A stretch of DNA of 64,000 bases from an uncultured Planctomycetia bacterium. Lineage in GTDB: Bacteria; Omnitrophota; Gorgyraeia; VGKH01; JBHPFN01. The stretch lies in NCBI GenBank assembly GCA_964406665.1, contig CAYOSQ010000003.1:102641-166640 (forward strand), in the 5' to 3' direction. Below are positions 22,522 to 58,256 of the stretch, piece by piece. The notes beneath the pieces are model-generated. The model was not told the origin of the DNA, made no database searches, and saw only the letters and a program-made list of their open reading frames with translations. Both the position numbers and the translations under genes were made by a program. How positions within the stretch are numbered: position 1 is the stretch's first letter; each line of letters opens with the position of its first letter.

Positions 22522-22708
22522 TGCCGATAAAGGTAAACCCGGTGAAAGCCGGGGGCGCAAAGCCAACAGACCTAAGTTGCCTTTTGGCAGTGAACCTGCA
22601 GGATGCAGGTAAGCCGTGGCCGGCTAGGCTGTGAATGCTGTGGCGATATGGTGGCTGGGTTGCCGAAGTGGGAGGTGAACCAAGGTCTTTATCGGCCTTT
22701 TTTTTTGC
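22522..22708 (+). ncRNA. unclassified structured small RNA (~187 nt), possibly 6S-like
   Basis: About 55% GC against a roughly 35% GC background; 5' GCCGATAAAGG pairs with 3' CCTTTATCGGC, followed by a U9 tract; several internal hairpins (CCCGG-TGAAAG-CCGGG, TTGCC-TTTT-GGCAG, CCTGCA-GGA-TGCAGG); own promoter and terminator; no ORF. Confidence 0.45.
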
Positions 22709-23432: not shown

Positions 23433-24560
23433 ATGGTAAATAAAAAAAGACTGATTAAATTAACTCAGGATTTAATCAGGATTAATTCAGAAAACCCACC
23501 TGGAAAAGAATTCAAAATAGCAGTTTTTGTCAAAAAGCTTCTTGATAAGCATGGTTTTAAAACTAGGCTATACGAGTTTGCCAAAGGAAGAACTAATATT
23601 GTTGCTACGTTAGAAGGTAAAGATAAAAGCAAATCTCTTCTGTTGACACCCCATTTAGATACTGTTCCGGTAGGAAAGGGCTGGTCTTATCCTGCGTTTT
23701 CTGGGTTGATTAGAAATGGAAGAATTTACGGCCGCGGGGCAACAGACTGTAAGGGCAATGTTGCTGCAGGAATTGAATCTATAATAAGCTTGGCAGAAGA
23801 AAAACAAGAATTAAATCATTCTTTGGTTTTTGCCGCAACCGCGGATGAAGAAACAGGCAGTAAGCTAGGTTTGATTCCACTCGTTGATAAAAAAATACTT
23901 AAGCCTTCAGCAGCCGTGATACTAGATTCCGATGTTTTTAATATCATTGTTGCTCAAAAAGGATTAATACATTTTAAGATTTGCTTATTTGGTAAGAAGT
24001 CACACGGCGCATATCCAGAAAGAGGGATGAATGCAATTGATTTAGCAACCAAAGTTATCTTAAAGCTTAAAAAGCATAAGTTTAAATACAAAAGACATTC
24101 TTTGCTTAGAGCTCCAACAGTAAATATTGGAATTATCCGTGGCGGAGATAAAGTAAATATGGTTGCTGACTGGTGTGATGTTGAAGTGGATCTAAGATTT
24201 TTACCAGGAATGGACCATAGAAAGATACTTAAAGAAGTCCGTAGTATTATTAAGAGCGTAACAAATAAATTTAAATTAGAGGTTCATGATGTACAAAGAC
24301 CCTGTGAGATTGACACAAGACATGATTTAGTTAAATGTCTTAAAACAACCAGTAAAAGAATTGCAGGAAGAGCGAAGTTAAAAGGAAGTGAGGGAGCAAC
24401 GGTTATTACATTTTTAGCTGCCAGAAAGGTACCCTCGGTAGCAACAGGTTTTGGCACTTCACGGTGTGCCCATACAACTGATGAGTACGTAAAGATTAAC
24501 GATCTTTATAAAGGTGCTAAGGTTCTAGAAGAATTTATTAAAGAGTTCGATAAAAGATGA
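23433..24560 (+). CDS. M20-family metallopeptidase (ArgE/DapE-like deacylase)
   Basis: HLDTVP, GRGATDCKG and ADEETG metal-binding motifs. Confidence 0.8.
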   Translation: MVNKKRLIKLTQDLIRINSENPPGKEFKIAVFVKKLLDKHGFKTRLYEFAKGRTNIVATLEGKDKSKSLLLTPHLDTVPVGKGWSYPAFSGLIRNGRIYGRGATDCKGNVAAGIESIISLAEEKQELNHSLVFAATADEETGSKLGLIPLVDKKILKPSAAVILDSDVFNIIVAQKGLIHFKICLFGKKSHGAYPERGMNAIDLATKVILKLKKHKFKYKRHSLLRAPTVNIGIIRGGDKVNMVADWCDVEVDLRFLPGMDHRKILKEVRSIIKSVTNKFKLEVHDVQRPCEIDTRHDLVKCLKTTSKRIAGRAKLKGSEGATVITFLAARKVPSVATGFGTSRCAHTTDEYVKINDLYKGAKVLEEFIKEFDKR

Positions 24561-41998: not shown

Positions 41999-42718
41999 AT
42001 GAGTTTATTAGAACAAAAAGAAGATTTGAAATTGTTAGTTGAGAAATTGAATTTTAAAGAAAAGGTTAAGCGATCAAAGGAGCTAATCAGGCAAGCTTAT
42101 GAGAAATACGGTGATTCGCTTGTTGTTGCCAATAGTTTAGGTAAGGATTCGGTTGCAGTCTGGGATTTAGCAAAAAAGGTAAATCCTAAAATTAGAGGTT
42201 TTATAGTAACTACACGTTATAAGCCAAAAGAGACAATTGAGTTTATGAATGGAGAGGTTACAAGATATCCAGAATTAAAAATTTACAAAAACGATAAAGA
42301 GATTCCTGAGAAACTTTATGAAACTAGCCCTGATCGTTGCTGCGATATTTTAAAGGTGCAGCCGGTAAAATGGGCTGTTGAAGAAATGGGAGTAAAATGC
42401 TGGGTAACCGGTTTACGTTGTACTGAGGGACGCACACGTACTGATTTTCAAGAAGTGGAAGAGCGAGATGTAGGTTTGATTAAACTTAATCCCATCCTTA
42501 TCTGGAAAGAACGTGAAGTCTGGCAGTATCTTGCTCTCTACGGCGTTAGAGTAAATCCTTTATATGGGGAAGGTTATCGTTCCCTAGGTTGTGCTCCTTG
42601 TACAAAGATAACTACTGATGACAATGAGAGAGCAGGCCGCTGGATAGGCACAAGTAAATGCGGAGGAGAGTGTGGAATTCATACCAGGCCACTTACAGGT
42701 GGCGGTGATGGAATATGA
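41999..42718 (+). CDS. cysH: adenylyl-sulfate (APS) reductase, thioredoxin-dependent, Fe-S type (CysH)
   Basis: PAPS/APS reductase fold with the C-terminal KCGGECGIH catalytic motif plus a CC ... CxxC iron-sulfur motif (RCCDIL ... CAPC) diagnostic of APS-specific enzymes. Confidence 0.8.
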   Translation: MSLLEQKEDLKLLVEKLNFKEKVKRSKELIRQAYEKYGDSLVVANSLGKDSVAVWDLAKKVNPKIRGFIVTTRYKPKETIEFMNGEVTRYPELKIYKNDKEIPEKLYETSPDRCCDILKVQPVKWAVEEMGVKCWVTGLRCTEGRTRTDFQEVEERDVGLIKLNPILIWKEREVWQYLALYGVRVNPLYGEGYRSLGCAPCTKITTDDNERAGRWIGTSKCGGECGIHTRPLTGGGDGI

Positions 42719-43209
42719 CAAAAAAGCAAGAGTCTTTACAATATTATCCGCTTGCAATAAGACTATCTGGAAAAGTTGCTTTGGTTGTTGGTGGCGGAAA
42801 TGTAGCCCAGCGTAAAATAGAGGCATTATTTATCTCTAAAGTTAAGGTGCGCTTAGCTTCTCCTGTGATAACGCCTAAACTTGAAATCTTAGCAAAAAAA
42901 GGCAAGATTGAATGGCTACCAAGATATGTTAAAAAAAGCGATATCAAAGGCGCAGATATTGTTATTGCTGCAACAGATAATAAGGCAGTAAATGAAAAAG
43001 TCAGTCGTTGGGCAGGTAAAGAAAAGGCTTGGATTAATGTTGTGGATAAACCTCTGTTGAGTGACTTTATCTCACCAGCTGTTTTTCGTACAAATAAAAG
43101 CATAATAACCGTGTATTCCGATGGTAAGGACCCTGTGTTATCTCGCGATTTGAAGGATTTTTTAAAGGAACACTGGAATGATTTTTTATCTTATAGGAAT
43201 AGATTATAA
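42715..43209 (+). CDS. sirC: precorrin-2 dehydrogenase / sirohydrochlorin ferrochelatase (SirC/Met8, CysG N-terminal domain type)
   Basis: N-terminal Rossmann motif VALVVGGGNVAQRKIEAL and about 160 aa length; lies in the siroheme cluster. Confidence 0.7.
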   Translation: MTKKQESLQYYPLAIRLSGKVALVVGGGNVAQRKIEALFISKVKVRLASPVITPKLEILAKKGKIEWLPRYVKKSDIKGADIVIAATDNKAVNEKVSRWAGKEKAWINVVDKPLLSDFISPAVFRTNKSIITVYSDGKDPVLSRDLKDFLKEHWNDFLSYRNRL

Positions 43210-44203
43210 AACAGCAACTCTAAAAGAGCGCGAAACCGCTATCTGTCTGCGTAAAGAAATTGAGCAGTATTGGCAGCAGGTTAGTCCTGGTAAGTTCGCC
43301 CTGCTTAACACGTGCAATAGAACCGAGATATATGCTGCTGCCTTAAGTAAAGGTGAAGCCGAAACTTTTGCTAAATCATTCAAAGCTAATTTTGCTACCA
43401 GTTTTAGAAACGCTTATTTCATTTATGGTAGTGACAAAATTTTTGCACATGGTTTGCGTTTAGCGTGTGGGTTAGAATCTCAACTTAAAGGAGAGTTGCA
43501 GATTATGCAGCAATTAGAAACTTGGTTTAATCAAGATAGTTTTCCAATATTGCTTAAGGGGATCTGGAAAAAGATTATTAAAGCAGGCAAAGGAATTCGC
43601 ACAAAGTCAGGCTTAGATAATAATAAGGTTAATATAGCAGAAATAGTGTTTAGTGATTTAAATAGAAATAATGTCTTAAGAGAAAGAACAAAAGTTATTA
43701 TAGTCGGCACAGGTAAAATAGCAGAAATTATTGCACGAAGTAAACATTCTTTATTTGATTTTATTTTTGTAGCACGCAGGGAGAAATCAAAATCAAAGGT
43801 ACTTGCTAGATTAGCGAAAGGTAAGACAATACTATACGATGAGCTACCTAAATATCTTGATGAAGCTGATGTTTTGATTGGTGCAACGTCCAGCCCGCAT
43901 TATATTCTACGCGCTGACGATTTTAAAAACTTATCAGGTATTCGCAAGAGCCTTCTGTATGTTTATGACTTAGCTATGCCTCGTGATTTTGCTGAAGATG
44001 TTAATGATTTATCTTTTGTTAGAAAGAAAGATCTTAATGGTTTACTTAGCACCTTTTATCAACAAAATAGCTATGTCATCAGGTGTCTTAAACTAGCGGA
44101 AAAATTTATTGAAGAAAAAGCATATGAGTATAAGGAGTATTTAAATAATGAAAAGTATACTAATTGGCTCACGGCCCAGCCTGCTTGCGCTAAAACAGGT
44201 TGA
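43178..44203 (+). CDS. hemA: glutamyl-tRNA reductase
   Basis: LNTCNRTEIYAA catalytic-Cys motif and a GTGKIAE NADPH-binding motif. Confidence 0.8.
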   Translation: MIFYLIGIDYKTATLKERETAICLRKEIEQYWQQVSPGKFALLNTCNRTEIYAAALSKGEAETFAKSFKANFATSFRNAYFIYGSDKIFAHGLRLACGLESQLKGELQIMQQLETWFNQDSFPILLKGIWKKIIKAGKGIRTKSGLDNNKVNIAEIVFSDLNRNNVLRERTKVIIVGTGKIAEIIARSKHSLFDFIFVARREKSKSKVLARLAKGKTILYDELPKYLDEADVLIGATSSPHYILRADDFKNLSGIRKSLLYVYDLAMPRDFAEDVNDLSFVRKKDLNGLLSTFYQQNSYVIRCLKLAEKFIEEKAYEYKEYLNNEKYTNWLTAQPACAKTG

Positions 44204-44798
44204 AGAAATTAAACAGCACTTTCCGCAAACAGATTTTAAGATAGTGACTATTAAGACAAGCGGGGACAAGGATAAATTTACGCCTTTGGCAGAATTAGAA
44301 AGAGAAGATTTTTTTACCCGGGAGATTGAGCAGGCATTGCTAGAGGGAAAAATTGATGCAGCAATTCATAGTGCTAAAGATTTAGAAAAAATACCCCCAG
44401 CAAATACTACTATTGCTGCTATGACGCACTCAATCAGTATTTTTGAATGTTTAATTTCCAGGGGAAATCTAACCCTAGGTCATCTATCTGCTGGAGCAGT
44501 TGTGGGAACAAGCAGTTTAAAGCGAAAGACTTCCTTGATAGATTTTCGGGAAGATCTTATTGTAAAAGACATCCGGGGAAATGTTGATGAGCGCATTAAG
44601 CAACTTGATCAAGGCAAATTTGATGCGATTATCGTTGCCCATGCTGCATTAATCAGATTAGGGTATGAAAGCAGAATTGCAGAAATAATACCGGAAAATA
44701 TTATTGAGCCACATCCTCTGCAAGGGAGATTATCTGTGCAGGTTCTTGCTAATAGGCCTGAGATGATAAATCTATTTAGGAGTATCAATGAACAATAA
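44148..44798 (+). CDS. hemC: hydroxymethylbilane synthase (porphobilinogen deaminase), short form lacking C-terminal domain 3
   Basis: LIGSRPSLLALKQ, IKTSGDK and domains 1-2 are conserved, but the ORF is only 216 aa and cobA starts immediately at 44788, so the roughly 90 aa domain 3 (carrying the cofactor-binding Cys) is absent. Confidence 0.7.
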   Translation: MKSILIGSRPSLLALKQVEEIKQHFPQTDFKIVTIKTSGDKDKFTPLAELEREDFFTREIEQALLEGKIDAAIHSAKDLEKIPPANTTIAAMTHSISIFECLISRGNLTLGHLSAGAVVGTSSLKRKTSLIDFREDLIVKDIRGNVDERIKQLDQGKFDAIIVAHAALIRLGYESRIAEIIPENIIEPHPLQGRLSVQVLANRPEMINLFRSINEQ

Positions 44799-45513
44799 AT
44801 CAGGAAAAATATATATTATTGGGGCTGGCCCAGGAGACCCAGAGCTGATAACGGTTAAAGGTCTTAAGGTTTTAAAACAGGCAGACTGTGTGTTGTATGA
44901 TTTTCTAAGCAGTGTGGAATTAATAAATTATGTGAAAACATCTGCTGAGAAAATATGCGTTGGTAAAGCAGATGGGTTGCATTTAAAAGAACAGGATGAA
45001 ATAAATGAGCTTCTTCACAAAAAAGCTAATGAACATAATATTGTGGTTCGTTTAAAAGGTGGAGACCCTTTTATTTTTAGCCGCGGCAGCGAAGAGGTAC
45101 GTTACTTAAGACAAAAAGGTTTAGACGCCCAAGTGATTCCTGGAGTAACTTCAGCAATTGCGGGTCCGGGATCATTTGATATCCCACTTACCATAAAAAA
45201 TAAAATATCTTCAGTTGCCATAATAACCGGCAGAAAGAAAGATATCAATGCCAGGATAGAAGCGCCTCGATGTGGCACTCTGGTTTATCTCATGGCAGTT
45301 AGTAATATTGTTAATGTGGTTAAGGCGCTAAAGGAAAATGGTTGGTCAGATGAGACACCTTGTGCATTTATTGAGCGTGCAACCTGTAAAGATTCCCGGA
45401 TTGTCCGTGCTGCTATCAACATGATAGAAAAAGAAACCAAGAAGCAGAAAGTTAAATCCCCAGCAGTTTTTGTTGTGGGAGAGGTGGTGAATTATGCCAG
45501 AGCAAATTCATAA
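44788..45513 (+). CDS. cobA: uroporphyrinogen-III C-methyltransferase (SUMT)
   Basis: IYIIGAGPGDPELITVKGLKVLKQADCVLYD plus the VVRLKGGDP motif. Confidence 0.85.
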   Translation: MNNKSGKIYIIGAGPGDPELITVKGLKVLKQADCVLYDFLSSVELINYVKTSAEKICVGKADGLHLKEQDEINELLHKKANEHNIVVRLKGGDPFIFSRGSEEVRYLRQKGLDAQVIPGVTSAIAGPGSFDIPLTIKNKISSVAIITGRKKDINARIEAPRCGTLVYLMAVSNIVNVVKALKENGWSDETPCAFIERATCKDSRIVRAAINMIEKETKKQKVKSPAVFVVGEVVNYARANS

Positions 45514-46441
45514 TATAAGTTTGGATTCTCTGATTTATCCGTTATTTGTAAAGCAAGGCAACGGTGTACGTGAACCAATTTCTTCCCTGCCGGGAATTTT
45601 CAGATTTTCTCTCGATACTATTATCGAAGAGGTAGAGTTTCTGAAACAAAACGGAATCAATAGAATTCTTTTATTTGGAATACCGGATAAAAAAGATTCA
45701 TTAGGTAGTGCTGCATATAGCGACGACAATGTTATTTCTGAAACTGTTACACTGATAAAGAAAGAATTCCCTGAAATAATTATTTTTACTGACGTATGCC
45801 TTTGTGCTTATGCATTGCATGGACATTGTGCAGTGCTTGATCAATCAGATAATTCGCTGTCTATAGACAAAAAACAAACTTTATCCACATTGGCAAGAAT
45901 GGCATTGTCTCATGCTGCGGCAGGAGCTGATTTTGTTGCACCTTCAGCTATGGCAAAAGAACAAGTGGGCACAATAAGGAATGCATTGGATAAAAATAGT
46001 TACAACAATACGAAAATTATGGGTTATTCCGCAAAGTTTGCATCCCAGTTCTACGGCCCTTTTAGGGAAATTGCAGATTCTGCTCCCAAATTCTCAGATC
46101 GCAGTAGCTATCAACTGAATTATAGCAGCAGTGATAGTGCTTTATCAGAGGTCGCAGATGATATTAAAGAAGGGGCAGATATCGTTATGGTTAAACCTGC
46201 GTTGGCTTATCTGGATGTTATCCGTCAAGTAAGGAATAAGTTTAACCATCCAATCGCAGCATACAATGTTAGCGGGGAATATGCAATGGTGAAAGCGGGT
46301 GTTAAGTCAGGATATTGGGATGAGAAAGAAATTGTTTTTGAAATAATTAATTCAATAAAAAGGGCTGGCGCAGATATCATTATTACGTATCATGCACTTG
46401 ATATTGCAAAGTGGTTTAAGAAAGAGCAGGTATTGGTATGA
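45494..46441 (+). CDS. hemB: porphobilinogen synthase (delta-aminolevulinate dehydratase)
   Basis: ALAD active-site regions (DVCLCAY, VAPSAMAKEQV, MVKPA). Confidence 0.85.
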   Translation: MPEQIHNISLDSLIYPLFVKQGNGVREPISSLPGIFRFSLDTIIEEVEFLKQNGINRILLFGIPDKKDSLGSAAYSDDNVISETVTLIKKEFPEIIIFTDVCLCAYALHGHCAVLDQSDNSLSIDKKQTLSTLARMALSHAAAGADFVAPSAMAKEQVGTIRNALDKNSYNNTKIMGYSAKFASQFYGPFREIADSAPKFSDRSSYQLNYSSSDSALSEVADDIKEGADIVMVKPALAYLDVIRQVRNKFNHPIAAYNVSGEYAMVKAGVKSGYWDEKEIVFEIINSIKRAGADIIITYHALDIAKWFKKEQVLV

Positions 46442-47712
46442 GAAATAAGGAAGTTAATAAATTCGCAGATCGCGTACTTGTAGGTGGGGTTAATAGTCCT
46501 GTGCGTGCATTCACTTGCGTTGGGGGAAAGCCTATACCAATACAGCGCGGCCGTGGATCAAAGATCTATGATTATGACGGCAGGCAATATTTAGATTACG
46601 TGCTTTCTTTTGGTGCACTCATTCTGGGGCATTCACGTCCTGAAGTTATAAAGGGGATAAAAAATGCAGCTGGTTTTGGCGTGGGTTTTGGGGCAACGAA
46701 TATTTCTGAGGTAGTTTTGGCTAAACGAATTCAAGAGACAATACCGCTAATAAAAAAGATTAGGTTTGTTTCATCAGGTACAGAAGCCGTAATGGGTGCA
46801 ATAAGATTGGCTCGGGGTGTTACGGGGAAAAATAAGATAATTAAATTTAAAGGGTCATACCATGGGCATGCTGATTATCTTCTTAAAAATGCAGGCTCTG
46901 GGCTTGCCACACTAGGGTTGCCTGCAAGTAAGGGTGTGCCAAATGATTTTATCCGCCATACGCTTATCGCCCGATATGGTGATGCAAAACAGATAGATAA
47001 AATATTTGCAAGGTTTGGTTCTGATATAGCTGCTGTTATTGTGGAACCTGTGGGGGGCAATGATGGCGTTATCTTACCGGATAAGACTTTTCTCAAATAC
47101 CTAAGAAAACAGACAAAAAAATTCAATGCTTTGTTAATCTTTGATGAAGTTATAACTGGCTTTCGTTTTCACTATGGTAGTGCGGCAACCTATTTTGGTA
47201 TGCAGCCAGACATCATCTGTTTAGGTAAAATCATTGGCGGTGGTTTACCTATTGGAGCATATGGAGCTAGTAAGAAGATAATGGATCATTTAGCACCGCT
47301 AGGTGGTGTTTATCAGGCTTCAACGTTTTCTGGTAATCCGATTGTGATGAAAGCAGGAATTAATACTTTAAAAGTTTTATCTTCGCTGAAGAATAATTAC
47401 AAGTACACTAAAAAAGCAACAGCATATTTAGTCCAATCAATTTCCTCTGAAGCTTATAAGCATGGTATTGACTTAACCATAAAACATTTCGCAAGTATGT
47501 TCAGCATACGTTTTAAAAATAAGGATTATTTTAAAATCTTTCATAGACAATTGTTAAATAAAGAAATATATCTTGCTCCCTCAGAGCACGAGTCGAATTT
47601 TTTATCATTTGCTCATACTAATAAAGATATTGAAAAAACTATAAGCGCTGTTAAAAATGCGCTAATTTTCTTAGCAAAAAGAAAGGTGAAGTATGGAAAA
47701 TGTAGATTATGA
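46438..47712 (+). CDS. hemL: glutamate-1-semialdehyde 2,1-aminomutase
   Basis: Class-III aminotransferase fold with the IFDEVITGFR and GKIIGGGLPIGAYG PLP-Lys region. Confidence 0.85.
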   Translation: MRNKEVNKFADRVLVGGVNSPVRAFTCVGGKPIPIQRGRGSKIYDYDGRQYLDYVLSFGALILGHSRPEVIKGIKNAAGFGVGFGATNISEVVLAKRIQETIPLIKKIRFVSSGTEAVMGAIRLARGVTGKNKIIKFKGSYHGHADYLLKNAGSGLATLGLPASKGVPNDFIRHTLIARYGDAKQIDKIFARFGSDIAAVIVEPVGGNDGVILPDKTFLKYLRKQTKKFNALLIFDEVITGFRFHYGSAATYFGMQPDIICLGKIIGGGLPIGAYGASKKIMDHLAPLGGVYQASTFSGNPIVMKAGINTLKVLSSLKNNYKYTKKATAYLVQSISSEAYKHGIDLTIKHFASMFSIRFKNKDYFKIFHRQLLNKEIYLAPSEHESNFLSFAHTNKDIEKTISAVKNALIFLAKRKVKYGKCRL

Positions 47713-48409
47713 TGCCTTAAAGAAACGTGGGTTCTTGCGACAAAAACAAGAAGACCTTTTCATGTTAAGGGCAAGAGGAAGGTGTGGAAATTATACCGGG
47801 GAGCAGTTTATTGTTTTTGCTGAGATATCAAAAAAATATGGTAGTGGGATTATTCATGCTACTACACGTCAGGGAATAGAAATTCCTTTTATTCGTTTTG
47901 AGGATATTGAGAATGTCGAAGCAGAGATTCAATCTGCAGGTATTGATCCAGGAACTTCAGGCCCACGCATGCGTACAACCACAACATGTCCGGGAAACAA
48001 CTGGTGTAAAAGCGGACTTATAAATACTTTTTCATTATATGAAAAGATAGAAAATGAATTAAACATTAAATGCGGCATGGATTTACCTCATAAGTTCAAA
48101 ATAGCTATATCGGGTTGTCCTAATAAATGCACAAGAGCACAAGCCTCGGAAATCGGCATCCATGGGCAACCAAGGTTCTTAAACGGAAAATCAAAAATAG
48201 GTTATGCTGTTTATTTAGGTGGTTGTGGTGGTAAGACTCCGCGCATGGGATTTAAATTGGATAAGATCTTCAGCGAAGATGAAGTTCTCTCCATTATTAA
48301 AAATGTAGTTAATTTTTATAAAGAGAGCGCAAAATCACGTCAGCGGCTTGCTTTGCTCATTGAAAAGATAGGTAAAGATACTTTTCTAAAGGCAATAGGT
48401 TTATTGTAA
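47693..48409 (+). CDS. small (238 aa) siroheme-type sulfite/nitrite reductase, low-molecular-weight assimilatory type
   Basis: Nitrite/sulfite reductase ferredoxin-like half domain (TTRQGIEIPFI) plus the siroheme/4Fe-4S motif CPGNNWC ... ISGCPNKC (Cx5C ... CxxxC). Confidence 0.65.
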   Translation: MENVDYDALKKRGFLRQKQEDLFMLRARGRCGNYTGEQFIVFAEISKKYGSGIIHATTRQGIEIPFIRFEDIENVEAEIQSAGIDPGTSGPRMRTTTTCPGNNWCKSGLINTFSLYEKIENELNIKCGMDLPHKFKIAISGCPNKCTRAQASEIGIHGQPRFLNGKSKIGYAVYLGGCGGKTPRMGFKLDKIFSEDEVLSIIKNVVNFYKESAKSRQRLALLIEKIGKDTFLKAIGLL

Positions 48410-49229: not shown

Positions 49230-50510
49230 TTGATTATAATAAATAAGGAGAAAAACATGAAGAAAATAAGTTTTATAGCGTACATTCTTTTTATCATTTT
49301 ATCGGCATATGCAGGTTTCACCTTGCAAGCAATCGAAGGTGCTGAGAGCTTAACGCTGACAACTTATTATCCTGCTCCTTTTGGAACTTATAAGGCGCTG
49401 AGGCTGTTCCCCGGAGCAACCCTTGGGGGTGCAGAGTGTAATGCAGATACTGAAGGGTTAATGTATTATGACGAAACCGGTACACAGGTAATGTTGTGTC
49501 GTGATACCGGGGCAGGTGTGTTTGCTTGGACACCATTTGGTGGTGGTTTATGGGAAATTTCTCCTGATGAAAATCAGATATATCCTATTGGCTGGGATGT
49601 TCCGCAGGTGGTAGGCGTAGGAACCGATAGCCCAATTGTTTCCGGATATGAAGATAGAGGGACACTCTTTCATGTCAAAAATGGTAGTGTACTTTTTCAG
49701 GGCGAACCTGGCTCAACAGTAGGGCTTGCACCCATGGAAGGTCCAGGAAGCCGGTTGATGTGGATGCCTGGAAAAAAAGGCGCTTTTAGAGCCGGCCATC
49801 TCACTGTAACTAACCACGATAATTGGGATGATGATACTATCGGCGAGACTTCTATAGCATTAGGCGGTGGTCCAGTGGCAAGCGGGGAATATAGCGTTGC
49901 TATCGGGCACGGGGTATTTGCAACAGGCGATAACAGTATTGCTATCGGATCAAGCCAAAGTACGCGAGCCGATTGCCAACAATGTTTAGCAATCGGGCAC
50001 TCAATAACGAATGCGATTGATCGATCTTTGATGATAGGCTTTGGTGGTACACCGGATATTTTTGTCAGTAGTGGGAAGGTAGGTATAAATAGAATAGTTG
50101 CCGCAAGTGGTAATGCATTGGAAGTTGAAGGACAGGCATCAAATACTGCTGGAGGGGTATGGCTTGTAAATTCTGACAGTGCAATAAAAACTGATATCCA
50201 TAATTTAGATAATGCTTCAGAAACTATAAACCAGCTAAGACCGGTTAGCTTTCGCTATATTAAAGAATATGCTGCGCAACATAAATCAATAAAAGATCAT
50301 GACTATTATAATTTTATAGCACAGGATTTTCAGAAGATTTTCCCTGATAATGTCAAGGAAGGCTCAGATGGGTATCTGCAGATAGATACTCATCCGGTTA
50401 CCCCGTATTTAGTTGCTGCGTTTCAAGAATTAAGCAGTAAAGTTGAAAAACTGGCACAGGAGAACAAACAACTGAAGGATATGATTAGTGCTCTGTCATT
50501 ACAAAAGTAG
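49230..50510 (+). CDS. membrane-anchored tail-fibre-like protein with C-terminal intramolecular chaperone (peptidase S74 / endosialidase-chaperone) domain
   Basis: N-terminal signal anchor. The central region has SxAxG head/fibre-like repeats (SIALGGG..SVAIGHG..SIAIGSS). The C-terminal ~120 aa (NSDSAIKTDIHNLDNASETINQLRPVSFRY...YNFIAQDFQKIFPD...YLQIDTHPVTPYLVAAFQELSSKVEKL) matches the autoproteolytic IMC domain of phage tail spikes (Ser-Lys dyad context). Confidence 0.6.
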   Translation: MIIINKEKNMKKISFIAYILFIILSAYAGFTLQAIEGAESLTLTTYYPAPFGTYKALRLFPGATLGGAECNADTEGLMYYDETGTQVMLCRDTGAGVFAWTPFGGGLWEISPDENQIYPIGWDVPQVVGVGTDSPIVSGYEDRGTLFHVKNGSVLFQGEPGSTVGLAPMEGPGSRLMWMPGKKGAFRAGHLTVTNHDNWDDDTIGETSIALGGGPVASGEYSVAIGHGVFATGDNSIAIGSSQSTRADCQQCLAIGHSITNAIDRSLMIGFGGTPDIFVSSGKVGINRIVAASGNALEVEGQASNTAGGVWLVNSDSAIKTDIHNLDNASETINQLRPVSFRYIKEYAAQHKSIKDHDYYNFIAQDFQKIFPDNVKEGSDGYLQIDTHPVTPYLVAAFQELSSKVEKLAQENKQLKDMISALSLQK

Positions 50511-50545
50511 ATTAGAATTTACAGAAAGAAAAGAAGGAGGGAGAA

Positions 50546-50935
50546 ATGCAAGATTCAATATTTATTGCCAGGATTATTGGCCCGGTTTTAGTAACTGTTG
50601 CTTTAGGTCTTATGGTAAACCGTAAAACTTACCAGGCAGTTATGAGTGAATATTTTGAGAATGCGGCTTTAGTCTATTTTGGAGGACTAATTTCATTGGT
50701 TATCGGTATTCTTGTAATGTTAAATCATAATATTTGGGTTTCTCAGTGGCCGGTTATCATTACTGTTTTTGGCTGGATGGGGTTTGTTAAGGGAGTATTT
50801 CTTATTATTTCTCCTAATTCAATGGTTAAATTGACTGAGGCTTATGCAAAGAATACAACTTTACTAGTTATTCATTCTATTTTGATACTTGCCCTGGGAA
50901 TATTTTTAACAGCTAAGGGATATTTTATCGTATAA
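50546..50935 (+). CDS. hypothetical membrane protein
   Basis: Four TM helices. Confidence 0.35.
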   Translation: MQDSIFIARIIGPVLVTVALGLMVNRKTYQAVMSEYFENAALVYFGGLISLVIGILVMLNHNIWVSQWPVIITVFGWMGFVKGVFLIISPNSMVKLTEAYAKNTTLLVIHSILILALGIFLTAKGYFIV

Positions 50936-50943
50936 ACTTTATA

Positions 50944-51615
50944 ATGCAGAAAGAAAGCGCACAAGATAAAAAAAGATTGCAGTGGCTGACTCCGTCAGCC
51001 ACTGTTTTAGTTGTAGCAAACTTAATTCCTCTTTACGGTGTATTGTTTTTAGGCTGGTCAGTTTTTTCAATTATTTTTCTTTTTTGGTTTGAGAATGTCA
51101 TTGTTGGATTCTTTAATGTATTACGTTTAGCTACAGTTAGAGTTGATCAGCCGTTAAAGAACTTGGCCAAACTATTTTTTATCCCGTTTTTTACAGTTCA
51201 TTACGGGATGTTTACTGCAGTACACGGGATTTTTGTTGTTGCACTTTTTGGTAGAGATGTTATAGATTCATCCTCGATGTCTTCACTTAATATCGAAATC
51301 TTAAGCACAATATTTAAAGAAAATTATTTACTTTTGGCTGCTGAGTTTCTTTTTATTAGTCATGCGTTTTCTTTCTTTTATAATTATCTTCATAAAGGGG
51401 AATATCGTCGTAGCTCTTTAGAGAAGCTCATGGGTCAGCCGTATAAAAGGATTGTGGTTTTACATCTGGCGATTATTTTTGGTGGATTTTTACTTATGGC
51501 ACTTAAAGCCCCAATTGCAGGACTTATTCTGTTTATAGTCTTAAAGATATTTATGGATGTTCTTTCACACCTTAAGGAACATCGACAGGTGGCAGATAAA
51601 AAGGAGAATGTATGA
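50944..51615 (+). CDS. hypothetical polytopic membrane protein
   Basis: Six TM helices; no domain. Confidence 0.4.
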   Translation: MQKESAQDKKRLQWLTPSATVLVVANLIPLYGVLFLGWSVFSIIFLFWFENVIVGFFNVLRLATVRVDQPLKNLAKLFFIPFFTVHYGMFTAVHGIFVVALFGRDVIDSSSMSSLNIEILSTIFKENYLLLAAEFLFISHAFSFFYNYLHKGEYRRSSLEKLMGQPYKRIVVLHLAIIFGGFLLMALKAPIAGLILFIVLKIFMDVLSHLKEHRQVADKKENV

Positions 51616-52202
51616 AATATTCAAAAGTTGTTTTTATGCTTTTATGTTTTGTTTTGTGTTTTGGTGTTTTAGTATCAGCAGAATCAATGCCGGGTTATTC
51701 TGGTGGGGGATTTGGAGATTCACCAAGCAAAGTTATACCTAAATCAATAAAAGGTGCAAAGGTAGTGCCGGGGCCGTTTCAGGTTCAAAAAGTTGAGTTT
51801 AGCACGGTTAATTTGAATAATCAAACTCGTCTGGCCGCTGCAGTCATTTTCAATAAAAATGTAGATGCGTCAACTGTCCAGCAAAACGTAAACATAAGAT
51901 TGCTTAAGAAAGACGAAAACAATTTTTGGCGGGATGCCTCAACTCAAAATAACAACGTAAATATAAGGCCAAATTTCATCACTTGGGTAAGCGGCGCATC
52001 GCTAGAAAGCGGTGTATATAAAATGCATCTGAGGGGAACAATAAAAAGCGCTGGCGGAATATCCCTTGATTGTGATGGTGATGGTAAAGGCGAAGGAGGA
52101 TATCCTCCGCCATATGAGTCACAACTGTATCAGTCGAATGTTATTGAGCTAGAGGAAGCGGATCCGGGCAGGCTGGAAGGTATAATTGGAGATTTCCGTT
52201 AA
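51612..52202 (+). CDS. hypothetical secreted protein
   Basis: Signal peptide; no domain. Confidence 0.35.
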   Translation: MKYSKVVFMLLCFVLCFGVLVSAESMPGYSGGGFGDSPSKVIPKSIKGAKVVPGPFQVQKVEFSTVNLNNQTRLAAAVIFNKNVDASTVQQNVNIRLLKKDENNFWRDASTQNNNVNIRPNFITWVSGASLESGVYKMHLRGTIKSAGGISLDCDGDGKGEGGYPPPYESQLYQSNVIELEEADPGRLEGIIGDFR

Positions 52203-52234
52203 GAAAACTCAAAAAAGAATAGGAGCAGGAAATC

Positions 52235-53470
52235 ATGATTAAAAAGATTGCTATTAGAATTATTTTTGTTTTATTATTTTTATTTGCCCTGCCTATTTTT
52301 CAGGGCACTTTTTTTGATATTAATTATTTTACAGGAGAAGGCTTTTGCCAACCTAAAACAGCAAGTGAAAAGTGCCCAGATAATTATGTGCCTGGTACCT
52401 GTTCGCCGAATCCTTGCAAGGAGCTTGAGAGCTGTAGTACAAGAGCATCGCATCCGCAATGTCATATGTGTACTGGTCAGGGTTGTCCTGCTAGTTATTC
52501 TAAGGGTAGGTGTACCTCTGATTCATGCAGCGAGAATGAAGTCTGCCAGCCGGATAATAGCAGGAAATGCCATAGATGTATGCCTAAGCCAGATTGGGAA
52601 GATTGCCCGGATGGTTATGCGCCCGGGACATGTTCGCCTAATCCTTGTCAACAGTACGCAAGTTGTGGCACAAGAGCATCACACCCGTTGTGCCATATGT
52701 GTACAGGTCAGGGATGTCCTACGGGGTATTCCAAGGGAAGATGTACATCTGAATCATGCAGTGAAGGCGAAACCTGTCAAGCAGATAAAAGCGGTAAGTG
52801 TCATAGATGTAGGCCTAAGCCAGGCTGGGAAAATTGCCCGGATGGTTATGCGCCCGGGACATGTTCGCCTAATCCTTGTCAACAGTACGCAAGTTGTAGC
52901 ACAAGAGCATCACATCCGTTGTGCCATATGTGTACAGGTCAAGGTTGTCCTGATGGTTTTCAAAAAGGGAGTTGTACATCTCAAACATGCAGCGAAGATG
53001 AAACCTGTCAATCTGATAAGAGTGGAAAATGTTATAGATGCATGCCTAAACCAGAGAAGGAAAAATGCCCGGATGGATATGTACCGGGGACATGCTCGCC
53101 TAATCCCTGTGAGTTAGGAGATAGCTGCAGCACCAGAGCATCACATCCGCTGTGCCATAAATGTAACTCTCGCTGTCCGGATGGATATTCGCTTGGGAAA
53201 TGTTCGCCCAATCCCTGCGAGCGAGGTCAAAGTTGCAGTACATTAGCTAAGTATCCATGTTATATGTGTAGAAATGCGATGGCCGTACAGGATGATGGGT
53301 TAAAGGTACAAAAGGCGCTTGGTGTGTTTGAAAAACGAGATAAAAAAAGAATAATCGTACCGGTTCCAGGCTATCAACATCAGACTCAAGGAGAAGAGTC
53401 TATGATTCCTGGCGTTACCACAACACCTAAGGCAGAAGACAAGCCGACTTGTCCAAGCTCTTCTCATTGA
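52235..53470 (+). CDS. secreted cysteine-rich tandem-repeat protein
   Basis: Signal peptide, then 3 complete and 2 partial copies of a 77 aa, 12-Cys unit (CPDGYAPGTCSPNPCQQYASCSTRASHPLCHMCTGQGCP.GY.KG.CTS..CSE.E.CQ.D.SGKC.RC.PKP). Confidence 0.6.
   Translation: MIKKIAIRIIFVLLFLFALPIFQGTFFDINYFTGEGFCQPKTASEKCPDNYVPGTCSPNPCKELESCSTRASHPQCHMCTGQGCPASYSKGRCTSDSCSENEVCQPDNSRKCHRCMPKPDWEDCPDGYAPGTCSPNPCQQYASCGTRASHPLCHMCTGQGCPTGYSKGRCTSESCSEGETCQADKSGKCHRCRPKPGWENCPDGYAPGTCSPNPCQQYASCSTRASHPLCHMCTGQGCPDGFQKGSCTSQTCSEDETCQSDKSGKCYRCMPKPEKEKCPDGYVPGTCSPNPCELGDSCSTRASHPLCHKCNSRCPDGYSLGKCSPNPCERGQSCSTLAKYPCYMCRNAMAVQDDGLKVQKALGVFEKRDKKRIIVPVPGYQHQTQGEESMIPGVTTTPKAEDKPTCPSSSH
52373..53280 (+). repeat. 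231 bp tandem DNA repeat (about 4.5 copies) inside the cysteine-rich protein gene
   Basis: Copies begin at about 52373, 52604, 52835, 53066 and 53174 (partial); copies 2 and 3 are nearly identical over more than 110 bp. Confidence 0.8.
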
Positions 53471-54452: not shown

Positions 54453-55889
54453 TTAGAATCTGATGGGGAAGTTTACTTCGAGAGTAAAGTCTGGCGCGTC
54501 TTCGGTAAGTCCGTAACCCGCAGTAATCTGCAAAGGTATTTTTCGATTAATCAGCCAAGAAACTCCGGTTTTAAAATTCGCTACATTAGTAAATGAGCCA
54601 GCGACCATATTATCATCCACTTCCATCTTTTGAGTAACATGTTGCTCTAACCCAAAATTAAGACTCAGTTGATAATTTAAGGAAAACGCAAGGCCCAAAC
54701 CATAGCTAATGGTATCTCCTGGGTTGACCTTGCCGTAATCATTGATATCTCTGGGAATATTCCAGGTATAGCCTAAGTTACCAAAAAGGATTGCAGGGTC
54801 AGCCGATTTTACCCAGGTTAGCCCTGCCTTGGTTGCCCAGTGTCCGGTTCCAACTCCGATAGATTCTCCGTAAGGTGATTCTCCGGTGTCTGACTTTACA
54901 GTCAATCCCGCGATCAAATCAGGCTTGCCGCCTTCCTCATGCATAAACTGATAAAATAGACCGGTTTCGATATCGCCTAGGCCACCTTTAGAGCGCGATG
55001 ATTCGGAGCCGTCCGATGATGTAACGCGTTCGTGTTGTCCTCTTAAGGGAACCCTCAAGTCCCATTGAAGATTGTCGGTTAATCCATAATGAGAGGTAAA
55101 TGTTTGAATAAAGATATCCCTTTTAACTGTCTCTGAGGATATTTCTCCAATAACCAGGACCGGTAAGATAGTAACTCCTTGGATAGAAATGTTGTTTGCT
55201 GAGAGGTGGGCATAAGTAAATTCAGAGTCAATTTTCCAATTTCCTTTGGGAAGCAGAACGCCACCGGTTCTAAACAGGGTTCTTTGTATAGTAACTTCTT
55301 TCTTGACTAAAGATTCAGGATCACCGGTAAACTCTGGTGCTGCGTCAGGATCGATATCTTCATCTCCCGGACCAGCGGCAACAATATTCTCAGCTTCACT
55401 GTCTTTAAGTTTTATTGGTTGATCTAATGTTTTTACGTATTCGCTAGCTACGGGTTCAGGTGATTTTGCACTTGCAGCGATATTTACTGACTCTACAGCA
55501 GAAATCTTCGGCGGCACTTTGGCTAAGGCAGATTCTTCGGTAATTAAAGTGAAATCATCACTGATAGACTCATTACCAAAAATATCTACACTGATTACAC
55601 GGTAGTGAATAGTAGTTGTAGCAGGTAAGTTATTAATTACAATGGTATGTCTAGTAACTAAGGCTGGATCTTCAGCGGTTTTGCTTCCAAAGGTGGTATC
55701 GCTTCCGTATTCGACTTGTGAAGTGGAAGGTTTATCTGTTTCCCAAACAATAGTTGCAGAATAGGTTTCCGGTTGAGCCTGCGCTGTTTGATCTTCTGAG
55801 GCTATGGTTACTTTTGCGCTTAAACAAATGAGAGCTACTAAAATTATACAGCTGAGTTTTTTCATGGTTCTACTATTGTAGGATAACAT
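54453..55889 (-). CDS. outer-membrane beta-barrel protein with N-terminal Fn3-like domain (candidate fibre-secretion channel, FapF-like role)
   Basis: Signal peptide, Fn3-like stretch (YSATIVWETDKPSTSQVEYGSDTTFG), an acidic Pro-rich linker, and about 280 aa of alternating amphipathic beta-strands ending ...LEVNFPIRF (a C-terminal aromatic OMP signature). Confidence 0.6.
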   Translation of the reverse strand: MLSYNSRTMKKLSCIILVALICLSAKVTIASEDQTAQAQPETYSATIVWETDKPSTSQVEYGSDTTFGSKTAEDPALVTRHTIVINNLPATTTIHYRVISVDIFGNESISDDFTLITEESALAKVPPKISAVESVNIAASAKSPEPVASEYVKTLDQPIKLKDSEAENIVAAGPGDEDIDPDAAPEFTGDPESLVKKEVTIQRTLFRTGGVLLPKGNWKIDSEFTYAHLSANNISIQGVTILPVLVIGEISSETVKRDIFIQTFTSHYGLTDNLQWDLRVPLRGQHERVTSSDGSESSRSKGGLGDIETGLFYQFMHEEGGKPDLIAGLTVKSDTGESPYGESIGVGTGHWATKAGLTWVKSADPAILFGNLGYTWNIPRDINDYGKVNPGDTISYGLGLAFSLNYQLSLNFGLEQHVTQKMEVDDNMVAGSFTNVANFKTGVSWLINRKIPLQITAGYGLTEDAPDFTLEVNFPIRF

Positions 55890-55930
55890 ATCCGTAAAAT
55901 CAACTTAAAAATTATGTCGTAAAGGGAGAA

Positions 55931-56623
55931 TTAGAATTCCCCGGATTTGTAAATAATGCCCATCGAACGTATTCCGAGGAGTCGTTTGACCATTGTTGGA
56001 TCGGAGAAGATTGCTTTTTCTTCTTCGCTAAGCTGAAGAGGAGAGTTTTCATTAACTACGACGTCTGACTTTGCAAGTACCAAGCCAACCCCGTCTTGCC
56101 AAACTTTTAAGAAGCGATCAATCTTCATAGTCATATTACCCATTGAGGGATCAGCCAAGAAAACGCGGCCTCCTTTTGCACCGCGGAAGATAACAAAATG
56201 AGCGTAATCCGTTATATTAACCGGTATAAGTACAGGTTTATCAAGGTTAGTGAGAAATTCAAAATCCATCCTGTAGCCTATTACATCATATCCTTTGTAT
56301 TTGGCAAAATTCTTCAGATCTAATAGAGAAAAGCCTTTGCGTTGTCTTAGTTTCTTCAGATCACTGGCAAGGACCAAAGACTTGATGATTTCTTCTTCGC
56401 TGATATCATCCTGGAAATAAAAGCTTAGGAGTGTTGCCAGAGATGCCGGCCCGCAAGAATAATCAAACGATTGTTTAACTACATTTTCTTCACGTATATC
56501 TTTGAGCGATTTGACTTCTTTATTAATGCCGGGTCCGAAGTTAACTGAGAGTGCTTCTGTGCTGGTGCAAAGACCGCATAGTGCAAACGCAAAAACAGAA
56601 AGGATAATAGTAATTTGTTTCAT
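55931..56623 (-). CDS. periplasmic C39-like papain-fold peptidase-domain protein (FapD-like role)
   Basis: Signal peptide. VKQSFDYSCGPASLATLLSFYF (Q...CG.A.LA catalytic-Cys context of the C39 domain) and a downstream AHFVIF...ADP His/Asp region. Confidence 0.6.
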   Translation of the reverse strand: MKQITIILSVFAFALCGLCTSTEALSVNFGPGINKEVKSLKDIREENVVKQSFDYSCGPASLATLLSFYFQDDISEEEIIKSLVLASDLKKLRQRKGFSLLDLKNFAKYKGYDVIGYRMDFEFLTNLDKPVLIPVNITDYAHFVIFRGAKGGRVFLADPSMGNMTMKIDRFLKVWQDGVGLVLAKSDVVVNENSPLQLSEEEKAIFSDPTMVKRLLGIRSMGIIYKSGEF

Positions 56624-57537
56624 TATAGGTTATTTATGATATTAGAAATGTTTATGTTTTCTATGTTAACTCCACTTAAGGAGTTTAATGAACTTCCAAT
56701 GACTGATAAAATTGTGATGTTATTCTGTATAATTCCGATTGAGTTTGTCACTGATTCGGCATTGATGGTGATGTTTAGATTGCCTTTATTAAGTACAAAA
56801 CTACCAACCTGCGCACCTCCGTCTACACCGTTTACGTTATTGATAACCGTGGCTTCGTTGGTGTTGCTTATTGTGACGTTATCGATTATCCCATTGCGTG
56901 CAATAGCAATTGCTATATTGTTCTGAGCAACTAAAGCAGCATTGCCTAAATTAAATACCTCTGCAATGTTCGAATTGATGATTGAGCTATTAAGTACACT
57001 TCCTTCCAGTGCAACGAGTGCTGCAATATTGTACTGTGAGGCTACTGAAGAGTTGGAAGCACTCACTAGTCCTGAGAAGAAATTAAGGCCTCCAGAAAAA
57101 AGTGAGGTTTGGGTGATATTAGCCCCTGCGTCTGTTGAACCATTACTCAAGTTGGTAATATCGGCGTAGTTGGAATTTTCAATGCTTACACCATCAACAT
57201 CGCCATTTCTGGCAAAGCCCACTGCAATATTTCCCTGTCCAACGATACTGGAATTTCCAACATTAAATACCTCAGCAAAATTAGAATTAACAATAGAGCT
57301 GTTAAGTAATCCGCCATTGAGAACAAGGAGGGCACCAATATTACCTTGGGATACAACAGTGGATGCACCTGAGGAGATGGTGTTAATAGATATATTTAGT
57401 CCACCTAATCCTTGGGCAGATATTTCATCTAGCTCTTGATCAGAAAGAATAACCGCATGACCTCTTTGATCTGCGTATGAAATTGGAACACAGCTAAAGG
57501 TAAAAATAATAACTAAGATGAGTGAAAATATTCGCAT
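56623..57537 (-). CDS. secreted N/Q/S/G/A-rich imperfect-repeat protein, candidate major amyloid-like fibre subunit
   Basis: Signal peptide, two ~75 aa repeats each containing sub-motifs S..V.SQ.NI.AL and NSSI.NSN.AEVFN.GN...V.Q.NIA...ARNG; almost no charged residues within the repeats; an N/I/S-rich C-terminus. Confidence 0.55.
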   Translation of the reverse strand: MRIFSLILVIIFTFSCVPISYADQRGHAVILSDQELDEISAQGLGGLNISINTISSGASTVVSQGNIGALLVLNGGLLNSSIVNSNFAEVFNVGNSSIVGQGNIAVGFARNGDVDGVSIENSNYADITNLSNGSTDAGANITQTSLFSGGLNFFSGLVSASNSSVASQYNIAALVALEGSVLNSSIINSNIAEVFNLGNAALVAQNNIAIAIARNGIIDNVTISNTNEATVINNVNGVDGGAQVGSFVLNKGNLNITINAESVTNSIGIIQNNITILSVIGSSLNSLSGVNIENINISNIINNL

Positions 57538-57604
57538 TCGTTTCCTATGTATAACTTTTTTTGATAGTTTCTACTTAAATTTTTATTTTTTTTCGTGGGT
57601 TAAA

Positions 57605-57633
57605 GGAGGGGACATGCAAGAGGCGTCCCCTCC
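57605..57633 (-). promoter_or_regulatory. GC-rich intergenic hairpin between the two repeat-protein genes (possible intra-operon attenuator / RNA processing site)
   Basis: GGAGGGGAC-N11-GTCCCCTCC, a 9 bp perfect stem in an otherwise AT-rich spacer; on the minus strand it is followed by TTTAA...A8. Confidence 0.4.
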
Positions 57634-57653
57634 CGTATGTTAATCCTAATGAA

Positions 57654-58256
57654 TTAAAGCTGATCTATTATGTATAGAGCAGCATCATTAGAGATATTTC
57701 CCACAACTGCACAATTGCTGTTTGTAACCGAAGAGTCACCAACTCCGTTAGAACCAACAATTGCTCCAATGTTGCTCTGTGCTGCAACCGCTGATTTAGA
57801 TAATCCTAAATCATTGATTGAACCACCATCTTCGCCAACTTCAATACCTACTGTTTCTACGTCAGCATAACCTTCGCCCCATTTTTCATAGACGTTGATT
57901 ACGAGAGCTCCATTGTTATTTTCAACTGAAGAGCTTGTTACATCGCCACCTAAAGAAGCGATTGCTCCAATATTGCTCTGTGCTGCTGCAGCGGAATTTC
58001 CATCGATATTTGCTACGAGTGCCATGTTGTTGTTAATAACTTCAGTAGACCAGATGGGTCCTCCAGCAGCAATCGCACCTATATTGCTTTGAGTAACTAT
58101 TGCTGAGTTACCAGCGTCGACATCGTTAAGATTGACGTCAATAGCTCCTGCAGTAATTCCAGCGAGTTCAGCATCTGTCATTACTGTTTCTGCAAATACA
58201 GGTACGCACAGCGCTACTACAACCAATGCGAGTAATAATGATTTCATGTATTTCAC
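57654..58256 (-). CDS. secreted three-repeat N/Q/S/G/A-rich protein, candidate amyloid nucleator-like subunit
   Basis: Signal peptide, then three ~37 aa imperfect repeats (GNSAIVTQSNIGAIAAGG..., GNSAAAAQSNIGAIASLGG..., SKSAVAAQSNIGAIVGSNG...), each followed by V.N.N.A.V.NI. Confidence 0.55.
   Translation of the reverse strand: MKYMKSLLLALVVVALCVPVFAETVMTDAELAGITAGAIDVNLNDVDAGNSAIVTQSNIGAIAAGGPIWSTEVINNNMALVANIDGNSAAAAQSNIGAIASLGGDVTSSSVENNNGALVINVYEKWGEGYADVETVGIEVGEDGGSINDLGLSKSAVAAQSNIGAIVGSNGVGDSSVTNSNCAVVGNISNDAALYIIDQL

Follow-up and report, generated by a model that had tools for sequence, protein, structure and literature searches.

A cysteine-rich tandem-repeat protein with weak resemblance to EGF modules, probably exported, in an uncultured Omnitrophota bacterium

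The window analysed here is a stretch of 64,000 nucleotides from an uncultured marine bacterium placed in the Omnitrophota (assembly GCA_964406665.1, contig CAYOSQ010000003.1), and it carries on its + strand, at 52235-53470, the gene of a cysteine-rich repeat protein. The open reading frame (ORF) is intact and encodes 411 residues, 50 of which are cysteines (12%). The first-pass annotation, made from the letters of the DNA, had described a secreted protein of this kind; the cysteine-rich ORF was found as it said, and the N-terminus of the product is hydrophobic. Inspection of the first 29 residues revealed neither a clear A-x-A cleavage site nor a lipobox, and in the full-length AlphaFold model residues 3-29 form a helix with a predicted local distance difference test score (pLDDT) of 72-80. 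A short linker with one cysteine separates the hydrophobic segment from the first repeat module, and the 63-residue C-terminal tail has no family match in Pfam. Taken with the envelope proteins encoded next to it, the hydrophobic N-terminus suggests export, and the product is a real, probably exported, cysteine-rich tandem-repeat protein. A second long ORF, at 52248-53117 in another frame of the repeat, is taken to have arisen as its by-product.

Tandem Repeats Finder reports a period of 231 bp, present in 3.4 copies with 80% matches (score 876) over 52367-53159; the one further row that it lists within the gene covers 27 bp of an AT-rich 14-nt tract where the signal peptide is encoded. In translation the repeat consists of three units of 77 residues (residues 47-123, 124-200 and 201-277), each with 12 cysteines at fixed spacing as the first-pass annotation had described, followed by a shorter fourth unit of 71 residues (278-348), likewise with 12 cysteines. 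The repeat is real, as is its cysteine pattern, and both go far beyond what chance would give. Each 77-residue unit is itself a pair of homologous but diverged six-cysteine modules, A and B, of 35-40 residues each, and the eight modules follow one another in the order A1 B1 A2 B2 A3 B3 A4 A5. Type A, of about 37 residues, reads CPDGYxPGTCSPNPCxxxxSCxTRASHPxCHMCTGQG, and type B, of 40 residues, CPxGYSKGxCTSxSCSExExCQxDxSGKCHRCxPKPxxEx. Common to both is the cysteine spacing C-8-C-4-C-5-C-7/8-C-2-C, kept in all eight modules. The units had been called near-identical, which is an overstatement: their DNA identity is 75% (units 1 and 2), 74% (1 and 3) and 85% (2 and 3), and their protein identity 70-82%. 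An identity above 90% between the two central copies, also claimed, holds for their first halves, A2 and A3, which agree at 107 of 111 nt and share an exact run of 63 bp (52604-52666 and 52835-52897), and fails for their second halves, B2 and B3 being 74% identical at the DNA level.

The first-pass annotation saw no obvious match to EGF (epidermal growth factor) domains, whereas EGF is the only fold family that the modules resemble, albeit weakly, in sequence and profile comparisons with PDB and in hhalign. The full-length protein has a single PDB match, PVFP-5 (7qab), a mussel EGF-repeat protein, at E 0.013. A profile built from the modules matched 12 PDB chains at E 0.009-6, all of them EGF domains (DLK1, factor VII, factor IX, EDIL3, Notch1 and PVFP-5), and the alignments span the equivalent of EGF C1-C4, ‘tCspNPCxxgxxC...C’. 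A control profile of the reversed sequence gave three chains of zinc-finger type at E of 1 or above and no EGF domain, so the EGF signal is specific, though weak. When re-cut to the EGF register, the profile aligns over the entire EGF domain of DLK1 (E 0.04). Read from the second cysteine, the series C-4-C-5-C-7/8-C of all eight modules falls within the EGF spacing C1-x(4-7)-C2-x(4-5)-C3-x(5-10)-C4. The best match other than self and junk among 1.84 billion proteins was a Notch-like protein of the sponge Sycon ciliatum (XP_065187490.1; E 8e-4), whose matching region exceeds the Pfam EGF threshold and has the spacing C-4-C-5-C-8-C-2-C, as in the window module. Five similar EGF modules of the sponge protein share the unusual C-x2-C gap; together with a sixth, canonical EGF module added to the alignment, they were compared with the module alignment in hhalign, which gave a probability of 96% over 37 columns; this target was picked post hoc, and E 8e-4 is the fair figure. 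An AlphaFold model of one module, computed with the eight-module alignment, reached a pLDDT of 70 (about 80 in the core) and shows a hairpin over the cysteines equivalent to EGF C3 and C4/C5, and the full-length model, computed without an alignment, has a hairpin in each B module at an overall pLDDT of 49. The module, a member of no curated family, would work like the EGF fold and is probably either derived from it or convergent with it.

The divergence between modules was estimated by the Nei-Gojobori method. Synonymous divergence (dS) is saturated, at 1.2-2.9, and the ratio of nonsynonymous to synonymous divergence (dN/dS) is 0.05-0.21, so the cysteine frame is under strong purifying selection and the modules are old. 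The exception is the pair A2 and A3 (dS 0.13, dN/dS 0.09), and the tract 52604-52720 has recently been homogenised with, or duplicated from or to, 52835-52951. A recent expansion, as the first-pass annotation put it, thus describes this one tract and not the array as a whole. Its further suggestion of a contingency locus does not hold, since the units are in-frame blocks of 231 bp and not simple-sequence tracts that switch a gene on and off; in the module region the 231-bp (77-codon) array stands alone, without a short tract that could switch the frame or a promoter, and the variant alleles described below are all in frame. The GC content of the gene is 45%, against about 36% in the window, and its GC content at third codon positions (GC3), 0.34, is inside the range of the other genes (0.26-0.35). 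The excess sits in codon position 2 and therefore reflects amino-acid composition; base composition gives no sign of a recent foreign origin of the gene.

No curated family accounts for the protein, in line with the earlier view that the unit lacks an obvious common cysteine-rich family. Pfam gave no family for the full protein at E of 1 or below, and no meaningful match for single modules, units or fragments in the EGF register at E of 10 or below, and NCBIfam gave no match at its E ceiling of 0.01. Among 5.8 billion proteins, a word-index search found a single cluster, from the same species only, composed of an identical 411-residue NCBI protein (P0004, from a contig of 252,147 bp), a 334-residue variant and miscalled fragments of 63 and 68 residues. 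The protein had no relative in scans of GTDB genomes and JGI metagenomes. The eight-module profile, run against 1.84 billion protein representatives, had strong E-values only within the species; its marginal matches (E 2e-5 to 1e-3) were a low-complexity bird protein, which is junk, the Sycon ciliatum protein and a Kazal-repeat protein. In a hidden Markov model scan of 133 loci (1.45 Mb) the module was present only in contigs of the same species, and the corresponding locus of a sister species, reached through the 196-residue gene upstream, holds no cysteine-rich gene. As far as public sequence data show, the module family is confined to one species-level population.

Variation was examined in short-read contigs from JGI, ENA and Logan assemblies. 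Many independent contigs of the population are 99.9-100% identical to the window, and at least 14 short-read contigs of the species end inside the repeat. L001 is the only one retrieved that spans the cysteine-rich gene, the others breaking in the repeat (52460-53290; L047-L053, L137-L146). The three-unit order of the reference is corroborated by L137 and L138, which carry A1-B1-A2-B2 up to 52814, and by L049, which begins at 52791 with the end of B2 and continues with A3-B3-A4-A5. Three contigs differ from it. L001 agrees with the window at 1004 of 1005 nt when a gap of 231 bp is allowed, with the junction in the 63-bp exact repeat of A2 and A3; the BLAST identity of about 95% was discarded as an artefact of aligning a repeat. 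The A module of L001 at the junction equals A3 plus a private synonymous single-nucleotide polymorphism, which the reference has in neither A2 nor A3. L052, 99.9% identical to the window over 8.5 kb, reads B*-A2'-B2'-A4-A5, with B2' joined straight to A4; its B-type end is novel, A2' carries eight substitutions, and B2' has VL in place of GW. L140, compared over the first 257 nt of the gene only, ends in a junction of A1 (5') with A2 (3') followed by B2; the longest exact run shared by A1 and A2 is below 15 nt, and about 11 nt, counted by eye, are shared at the junction. The first roughly 50 nt of L145, an ENA scaffold (positions 1-50), are unlike the window, with 26 mismatches and a junk translation, and are probably an adapter or a chimeric end.

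The most probable competitor of the explanation proposed below is that the population has one stable three-unit allele and that the variants are collapsed or chimeric paths through a repeat which short reads cannot resolve. The many contigs that terminate within the repeat agree with such an artefact, as do the junk at the end of L145 and the position of the L001 junction, at the exact repeat, which would make a de Bruijn graph fork. Against it speak the polymorphism of L001, found in neither reference copy, and the novel sequence of L052, and the crossover in L140 lies where the reference shares a run below any assembler k-mer, so that mis-assembly of the reference could not have produced it. 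We consider an assembly artefact unlikely, while taking it seriously. The three contigs together seem to point to real allelic diversity, as expected of recombination between diverged modules. The idea that copy number varies across strains stands insofar as module content appears to differ between co-occurring strains, in L001, L052 and L140, each of them a short-read contig and possibly chimeric.

The window is chromosomal, with argS, recJ, trpB, pgi, hemL and a haem-biosynthesis cluster, and its RecJ has named relatives in Candidatus Omnitrophota only, that of the nearest other species being 71-72% identical. Five + strand genes are closely packed here, with gaps of -4 to 36 nt, and the cysteine-rich gene closes the series. 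The block upstream of it (49230..52202, +) ends 32 nt before its start; judged from spacing, the five are probably co-transcribed. Their coordinates are collected in the table below. The cysteine-rich gene does belong to a block of genes for secreted and membrane proteins, as first annotated, and the gene taken for its tail-fibre-like neighbour is also present, with three genes in between. What does not stand is the implied phage link: the encoded protein, with YadA-head repeats and a Peptidase_S74 domain, is of the cellular trimeric-fibre type, and haem-biosynthesis and FKBP genes lie directly upstream. A prophage context was rejected in view of the haem-biosynthesis, sulfite/nitrite-reductase-like and FKBP genes upstream and of a TPR protein gene and a Fap/Fil-like operon downstream; library scans, which did not include PHROGs, found no phage genes near the cysteine-rich gene. 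The TPR protein, encoded next downstream, has a lipobox-like LIGC, identified by eye. The 196-residue protein encoded just upstream belongs to a family with 97 matches in metagenome-assembled genomes of Omnitrophota and Desulfobacteraceae, one member of which carries PF13205 (Big_5); Pfam found nothing in the window protein itself. Searches for synteny through hemL and DUF6498 reached only distant relatives (identity of 50% or below), and the neighbourhoods in the sister species differ, so synteny offers no functional clue.

Several other features of the window were recorded. Beyond the TPR gene and convergent with it lies an operon at 54453-58256 (-) that resembles a Fap/Fil-type secretion operon for fibres or functional amyloid. 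It encodes a 478-residue outer-membrane protein (NCBIfam FapF, E 1e-43, also FilC) and a 230-residue C39 peptidase (FilB 3e-37, FapD 8e-33), all of these matches being below the curated cut-offs, and upstream of them two secreted proteins of 304 and 200 residues, without Pfam match, whose imperfect ‘aQ(S/G)NIGAIa...V.NsN.A.V.N’ repeats recall Fap subunits. Genes of AraC type and PilZ-like type lie just upstream of the operon. A cyclic di-GMP-I riboswitch aptamer (RF01051; 63 bits, gathering threshold 35) occupies 22522-22667 (+), in an intervening stretch of about 950 nt ahead of the next long ORF, at 23433. The tetrapyrrole cluster at 42715-48409 (+) comprises a sirohaem-type NAD-binding protein, hemA, hemC, TP_methylase, hemB and hemL, preceded by a gene for a 3'-phosphoadenosine-5'-phosphosulfate (PAPS) reductase and followed by a small nitrite/sulfite-reductase-like gene. 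The GC skew is strongly and uniformly positive (about +0.1 to +0.25) over nearly all of 1-64000 and the genes up to 54.4 kb are almost all on the + strand, which is consistent with a leading-strand segment.

Table. Features of the cysteine-rich gene and of the genes preceding it in the same run
Feature	Position	Strand	Remarks
Protein with signal peptide, YadA-head repeats and Peptidase_S74 chaperone domain	49230-50510	+	
Membrane protein, 129 aa	50546-50935	+	
DUF6498 membrane protein	50944-51615	+	
Secreted protein, 196 aa, of a widespread unnamed family	51612-52202	+	
Shine-Dalgarno sequence AGGAG	52221..52225	+	9 nt 5' of the ATG; read from the sequence
Cysteine-rich repeat protein gene	52235..53470	+	ORF list; purifying selection between modules; identical NCBI protein
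N-terminal export signal or signal anchor (predicted)	52235..52321	+	aa 1-29; MIKKIAIR and 19 hydrophobic residues
Module A1	52373..52483	+	aa 47-83; 6 Cys
Module B1	52484..52603	+	aa 84-123; 6 Cys
Module A2	52604..52714	+	aa 124-160; 96.4% DNA identity to A3
Module B2	52715..52834	+	aa 161-200; AlphaFold beta-hairpin aa 179-183 / 189-194
Module A3	52835..52945	+	aa 201-237; proposed recombination partner of A2
Module B3	52946..53065	+	aa 238-277
Module A4	53066..53173	+	aa 278-313
Module A5	53174..53278	+	aa 314-348; most diverged A-type module
C-terminal tail, 63 aa	53279..53467	+	charged, predicted disordered; one unpaired Cys (C406)

The explanation that we favour, with a probability of roughly 0.45, is that the gene encodes an exported, disulfide-stabilised array of EGF-like modules that serves as a rod or spacer or as an adhesin, and that recombination between modules makes variable in length. 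The protein would be exported by the Sec pathway to the envelope, where the signal would either be cleaved or remain as an uncleaved anchor in the inner membrane. Its extracytoplasmic part would consist of the eight small six-cysteine modules, alternating between types A and B, each with an EGF-like core in which C-4-C-5-C-7/8-C-2-C surrounds a β-hairpin. If the cysteines of a module are named a to f, and a' is the first cysteine of the next module, each module would contain three local disulfides; with six cysteines per period, b-d, c-e and f-a' is the only self-consistent local pairing. The array may thus form a stiff, protease-resistant rod of about 20 nm, acting as a spacer at the surface or in the periplasm, or as an adhesin. 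Homologous recombination between similar modules, chiefly the 96%-identical A2 and A3, would delete or reshuffle in-frame blocks, and co-occurring strains would then differ in protein length and in module order.

A number of observations weigh against this explanation. The curated EGF models were not matched even at E values up to 10, and none came to its gathering threshold; Foldseek found nothing significant in PDB (best E 1.1), its weak matches including follistatin/BM-40 FS as well as EGF domains. Confidence is only moderate for the single-module model and poor for the full-length one. In its C-terminal half the module is non-canonical: in place of C4-x-C5 and a loop of 8-14 residues to a sixth cysteine of its own, the gap is x2, an extra cysteine is present, the next cysteine after the C5 equivalent is 3-4 or 8 residues away, and the one that closes ‘PxGYxxGxC’ also opens the next module. 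The sixth EGF cysteine would therefore be shared with that module, which makes the disulfide map a guess. If the source water is anoxic, as the names of the samples suggest, stable extracytoplasmic disulfides are less self-evident; a Cariaco Basin origin is a guess from the assembly names (SUTE22-1, SCRA20-1), and the literature searched for the sample accessions yielded nothing. The gene is an orphan, which gives no argument from co-occurrence or synteny, and in the sister species the 196-residue gene, 78% identical, lies in a different neighbourhood from which the cysteine-rich gene is absent. Finally, short-read contigs interrupted within the repeat are the source of all the variants, any single one of which could be chimeric.

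The protein could instead be a secreted binding or inhibitor effector and no structural rod, each of its small disulfide-rich domains offering a conserved loop (TRASHP in A, DKSGK in B) to a protein of a prey or host, in the manner of multi-domain protease inhibitors of the Kazal or antistasin type or of EGF-type ligands. The loops too are under purifying selection, TRASHP being kept in A1-A4 in spite of saturated dS, there is the marginal profile match to a Kazal-domain protein (E 1e-3), and host-dependent or predatory lifestyles have been inferred for Omnitrophota (PMC10066038). Yet neither Pfam nor Foldseek gave a significant match to an inhibitor family, the loops are conserved between domains here and usually variable in tandem inhibitors, and the N-terminus resembles an anchor more than it does a cleaved signal, all of which leaves an effector role distinctly doubtful. 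A bolder variant of the EGF-like array is that the modules are a bacterial offshoot of EGF, acquired long ago from a eukaryote or invented independently, whose overlapping domains share cysteines in a new disulfide topology and give an ultra-small, possibly host-dependent cell an attachment stalk or envelope ruler with a length tuned by recombination between modules. We regard this as improbable; there is so far no evidence for an unusual mechanism, and the gene does not represent a new kind of system.

A further proposal is that the cysteines bind metal and that the protein is a thiolate-rich periplasmic buffer or store for metal in anoxic, sulfidic water. With 12% cysteine, a histidine beside cysteine in most modules (SHPxCHMC, KCHRC) and a habitat that appears oxygen-depleted (from sample names only), this has some appeal, and the zinc-finger matches of the reversed-profile control indicate that such cysteine patterns can look metal-binding. 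The histidine is not invariant, however, being replaced by Y in B3 and A5. In place of the CC, CxC and CxxC clusters with little secondary structure that characterise metallothionein-like proteins, each module has a single CxxC, no CC or CxC, and a predicted hairpin, and both spacing and hairpin fit disulfide domains of the EGF type; a metal store has accordingly only a slim chance of being correct. That the ORF is spurious or decaying in repetitive DNA, as its orphan status without an annotated family and the second long ORF in the other frame might suggest, is effectively refuted by dN/dS of 0.05-0.2 in the cysteine frame at saturated dS, by an intact frame with a Shine-Dalgarno sequence, by in-frame variant alleles and by cysteine spacing perfectly kept in eight modules. 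Two other candidates were discarded: a multi-haem protein, for want of a CxxCH motif, and a precursor of a ribosomally synthesised and post-translationally modified peptide (RiPP), on the grounds of size, signal peptide and the absence of maturase genes from the operon.

EGF-type disulfide modules are overwhelmingly eukaryotic. A bacterial array limited to one species and with non-canonical use of its cysteines would be a compact test case for the origin and re-wiring of small disulfide folds. Lineage-specific envelope proteins that vary between co-occurring strains could plausibly determine partner specificity. The uncultivated, very small cells of Omnitrophota are inferred in published work to be often host-dependent and to rely on surface adhesins, and are suspected of attaching to other cells or preying on them (PMC10066038); the fit of the favoured adhesin or spacer role with this lifestyle is circumstantial. 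There is also a practical consequence. Nearly all the short-read assemblies retrieved break in the gene, and gene callers give C-terminal fragments of 63 and 68 residues or wrong-frame ORFs in its place, so genes of this kind are systematically truncated or miscalled in metagenome catalogues.

Among known systems, the arrays of EGF domains (PF00008 clan; Notch, DLK1, EGF1 of factors VII and IX) are the closest in architecture. Both they and the window protein string six-cysteine modules of about 40 residues head to tail, and the spacing C1-x4-C2-x5-C3-x8-C4 and the ‘C-S-P-N-P-C’ motif agree, as would the hairpin predicted over C3 and C4/C5; the stretch ‘C-P-x-G-[YF]-x-x-G-x-C’ resembles the C5-C6 loop of EGF. 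In the window module, however, ‘CPxGY’ follows an extra cysteine and its closing cysteine doubles as the first of the next module, which rules out the canonical 1-3, 2-4, 5-6 map in its unaltered form. The window array further differs in having two module types in alternation, with linkers 4 and 8 residues long, and in being bacterial and found in one species. PVFP-5 (7qab), an adhesive, cysteine-rich extracellular protein of tandem EGF-like repeats, has the kind of architecture proposed for the window protein; the two are only marginally similar, with nothing beyond the NPC...C motif in common, and PVFP-5 is eukaryotic and rich in tyrosine and 3,4-dihydroxyphenylalanine (DOPA). The Kazal domain (PF00050) opens with ‘C-P-x-x-Y-x-P-x-x-C’, as does the module, in keeping with the marginal match to the Kazal-repeat protein, whereas the cysteine spacing after the first loop is unlike and Pfam gave no Kazal match.

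For the variation in length, the nearest parallel lies in the alpha C and Rib proteins of streptococci, surface proteins whose long in-frame repeats vary in number by recombination. In-frame units of hundreds of base pairs are common to both cases, as would be deletion between near-identical copies and a surface or envelope setting. The repeats of alpha C and Rib are near-identical and free of cysteine, whereas the modules of the window protein are mostly old, with one recombination-prone pair among them.

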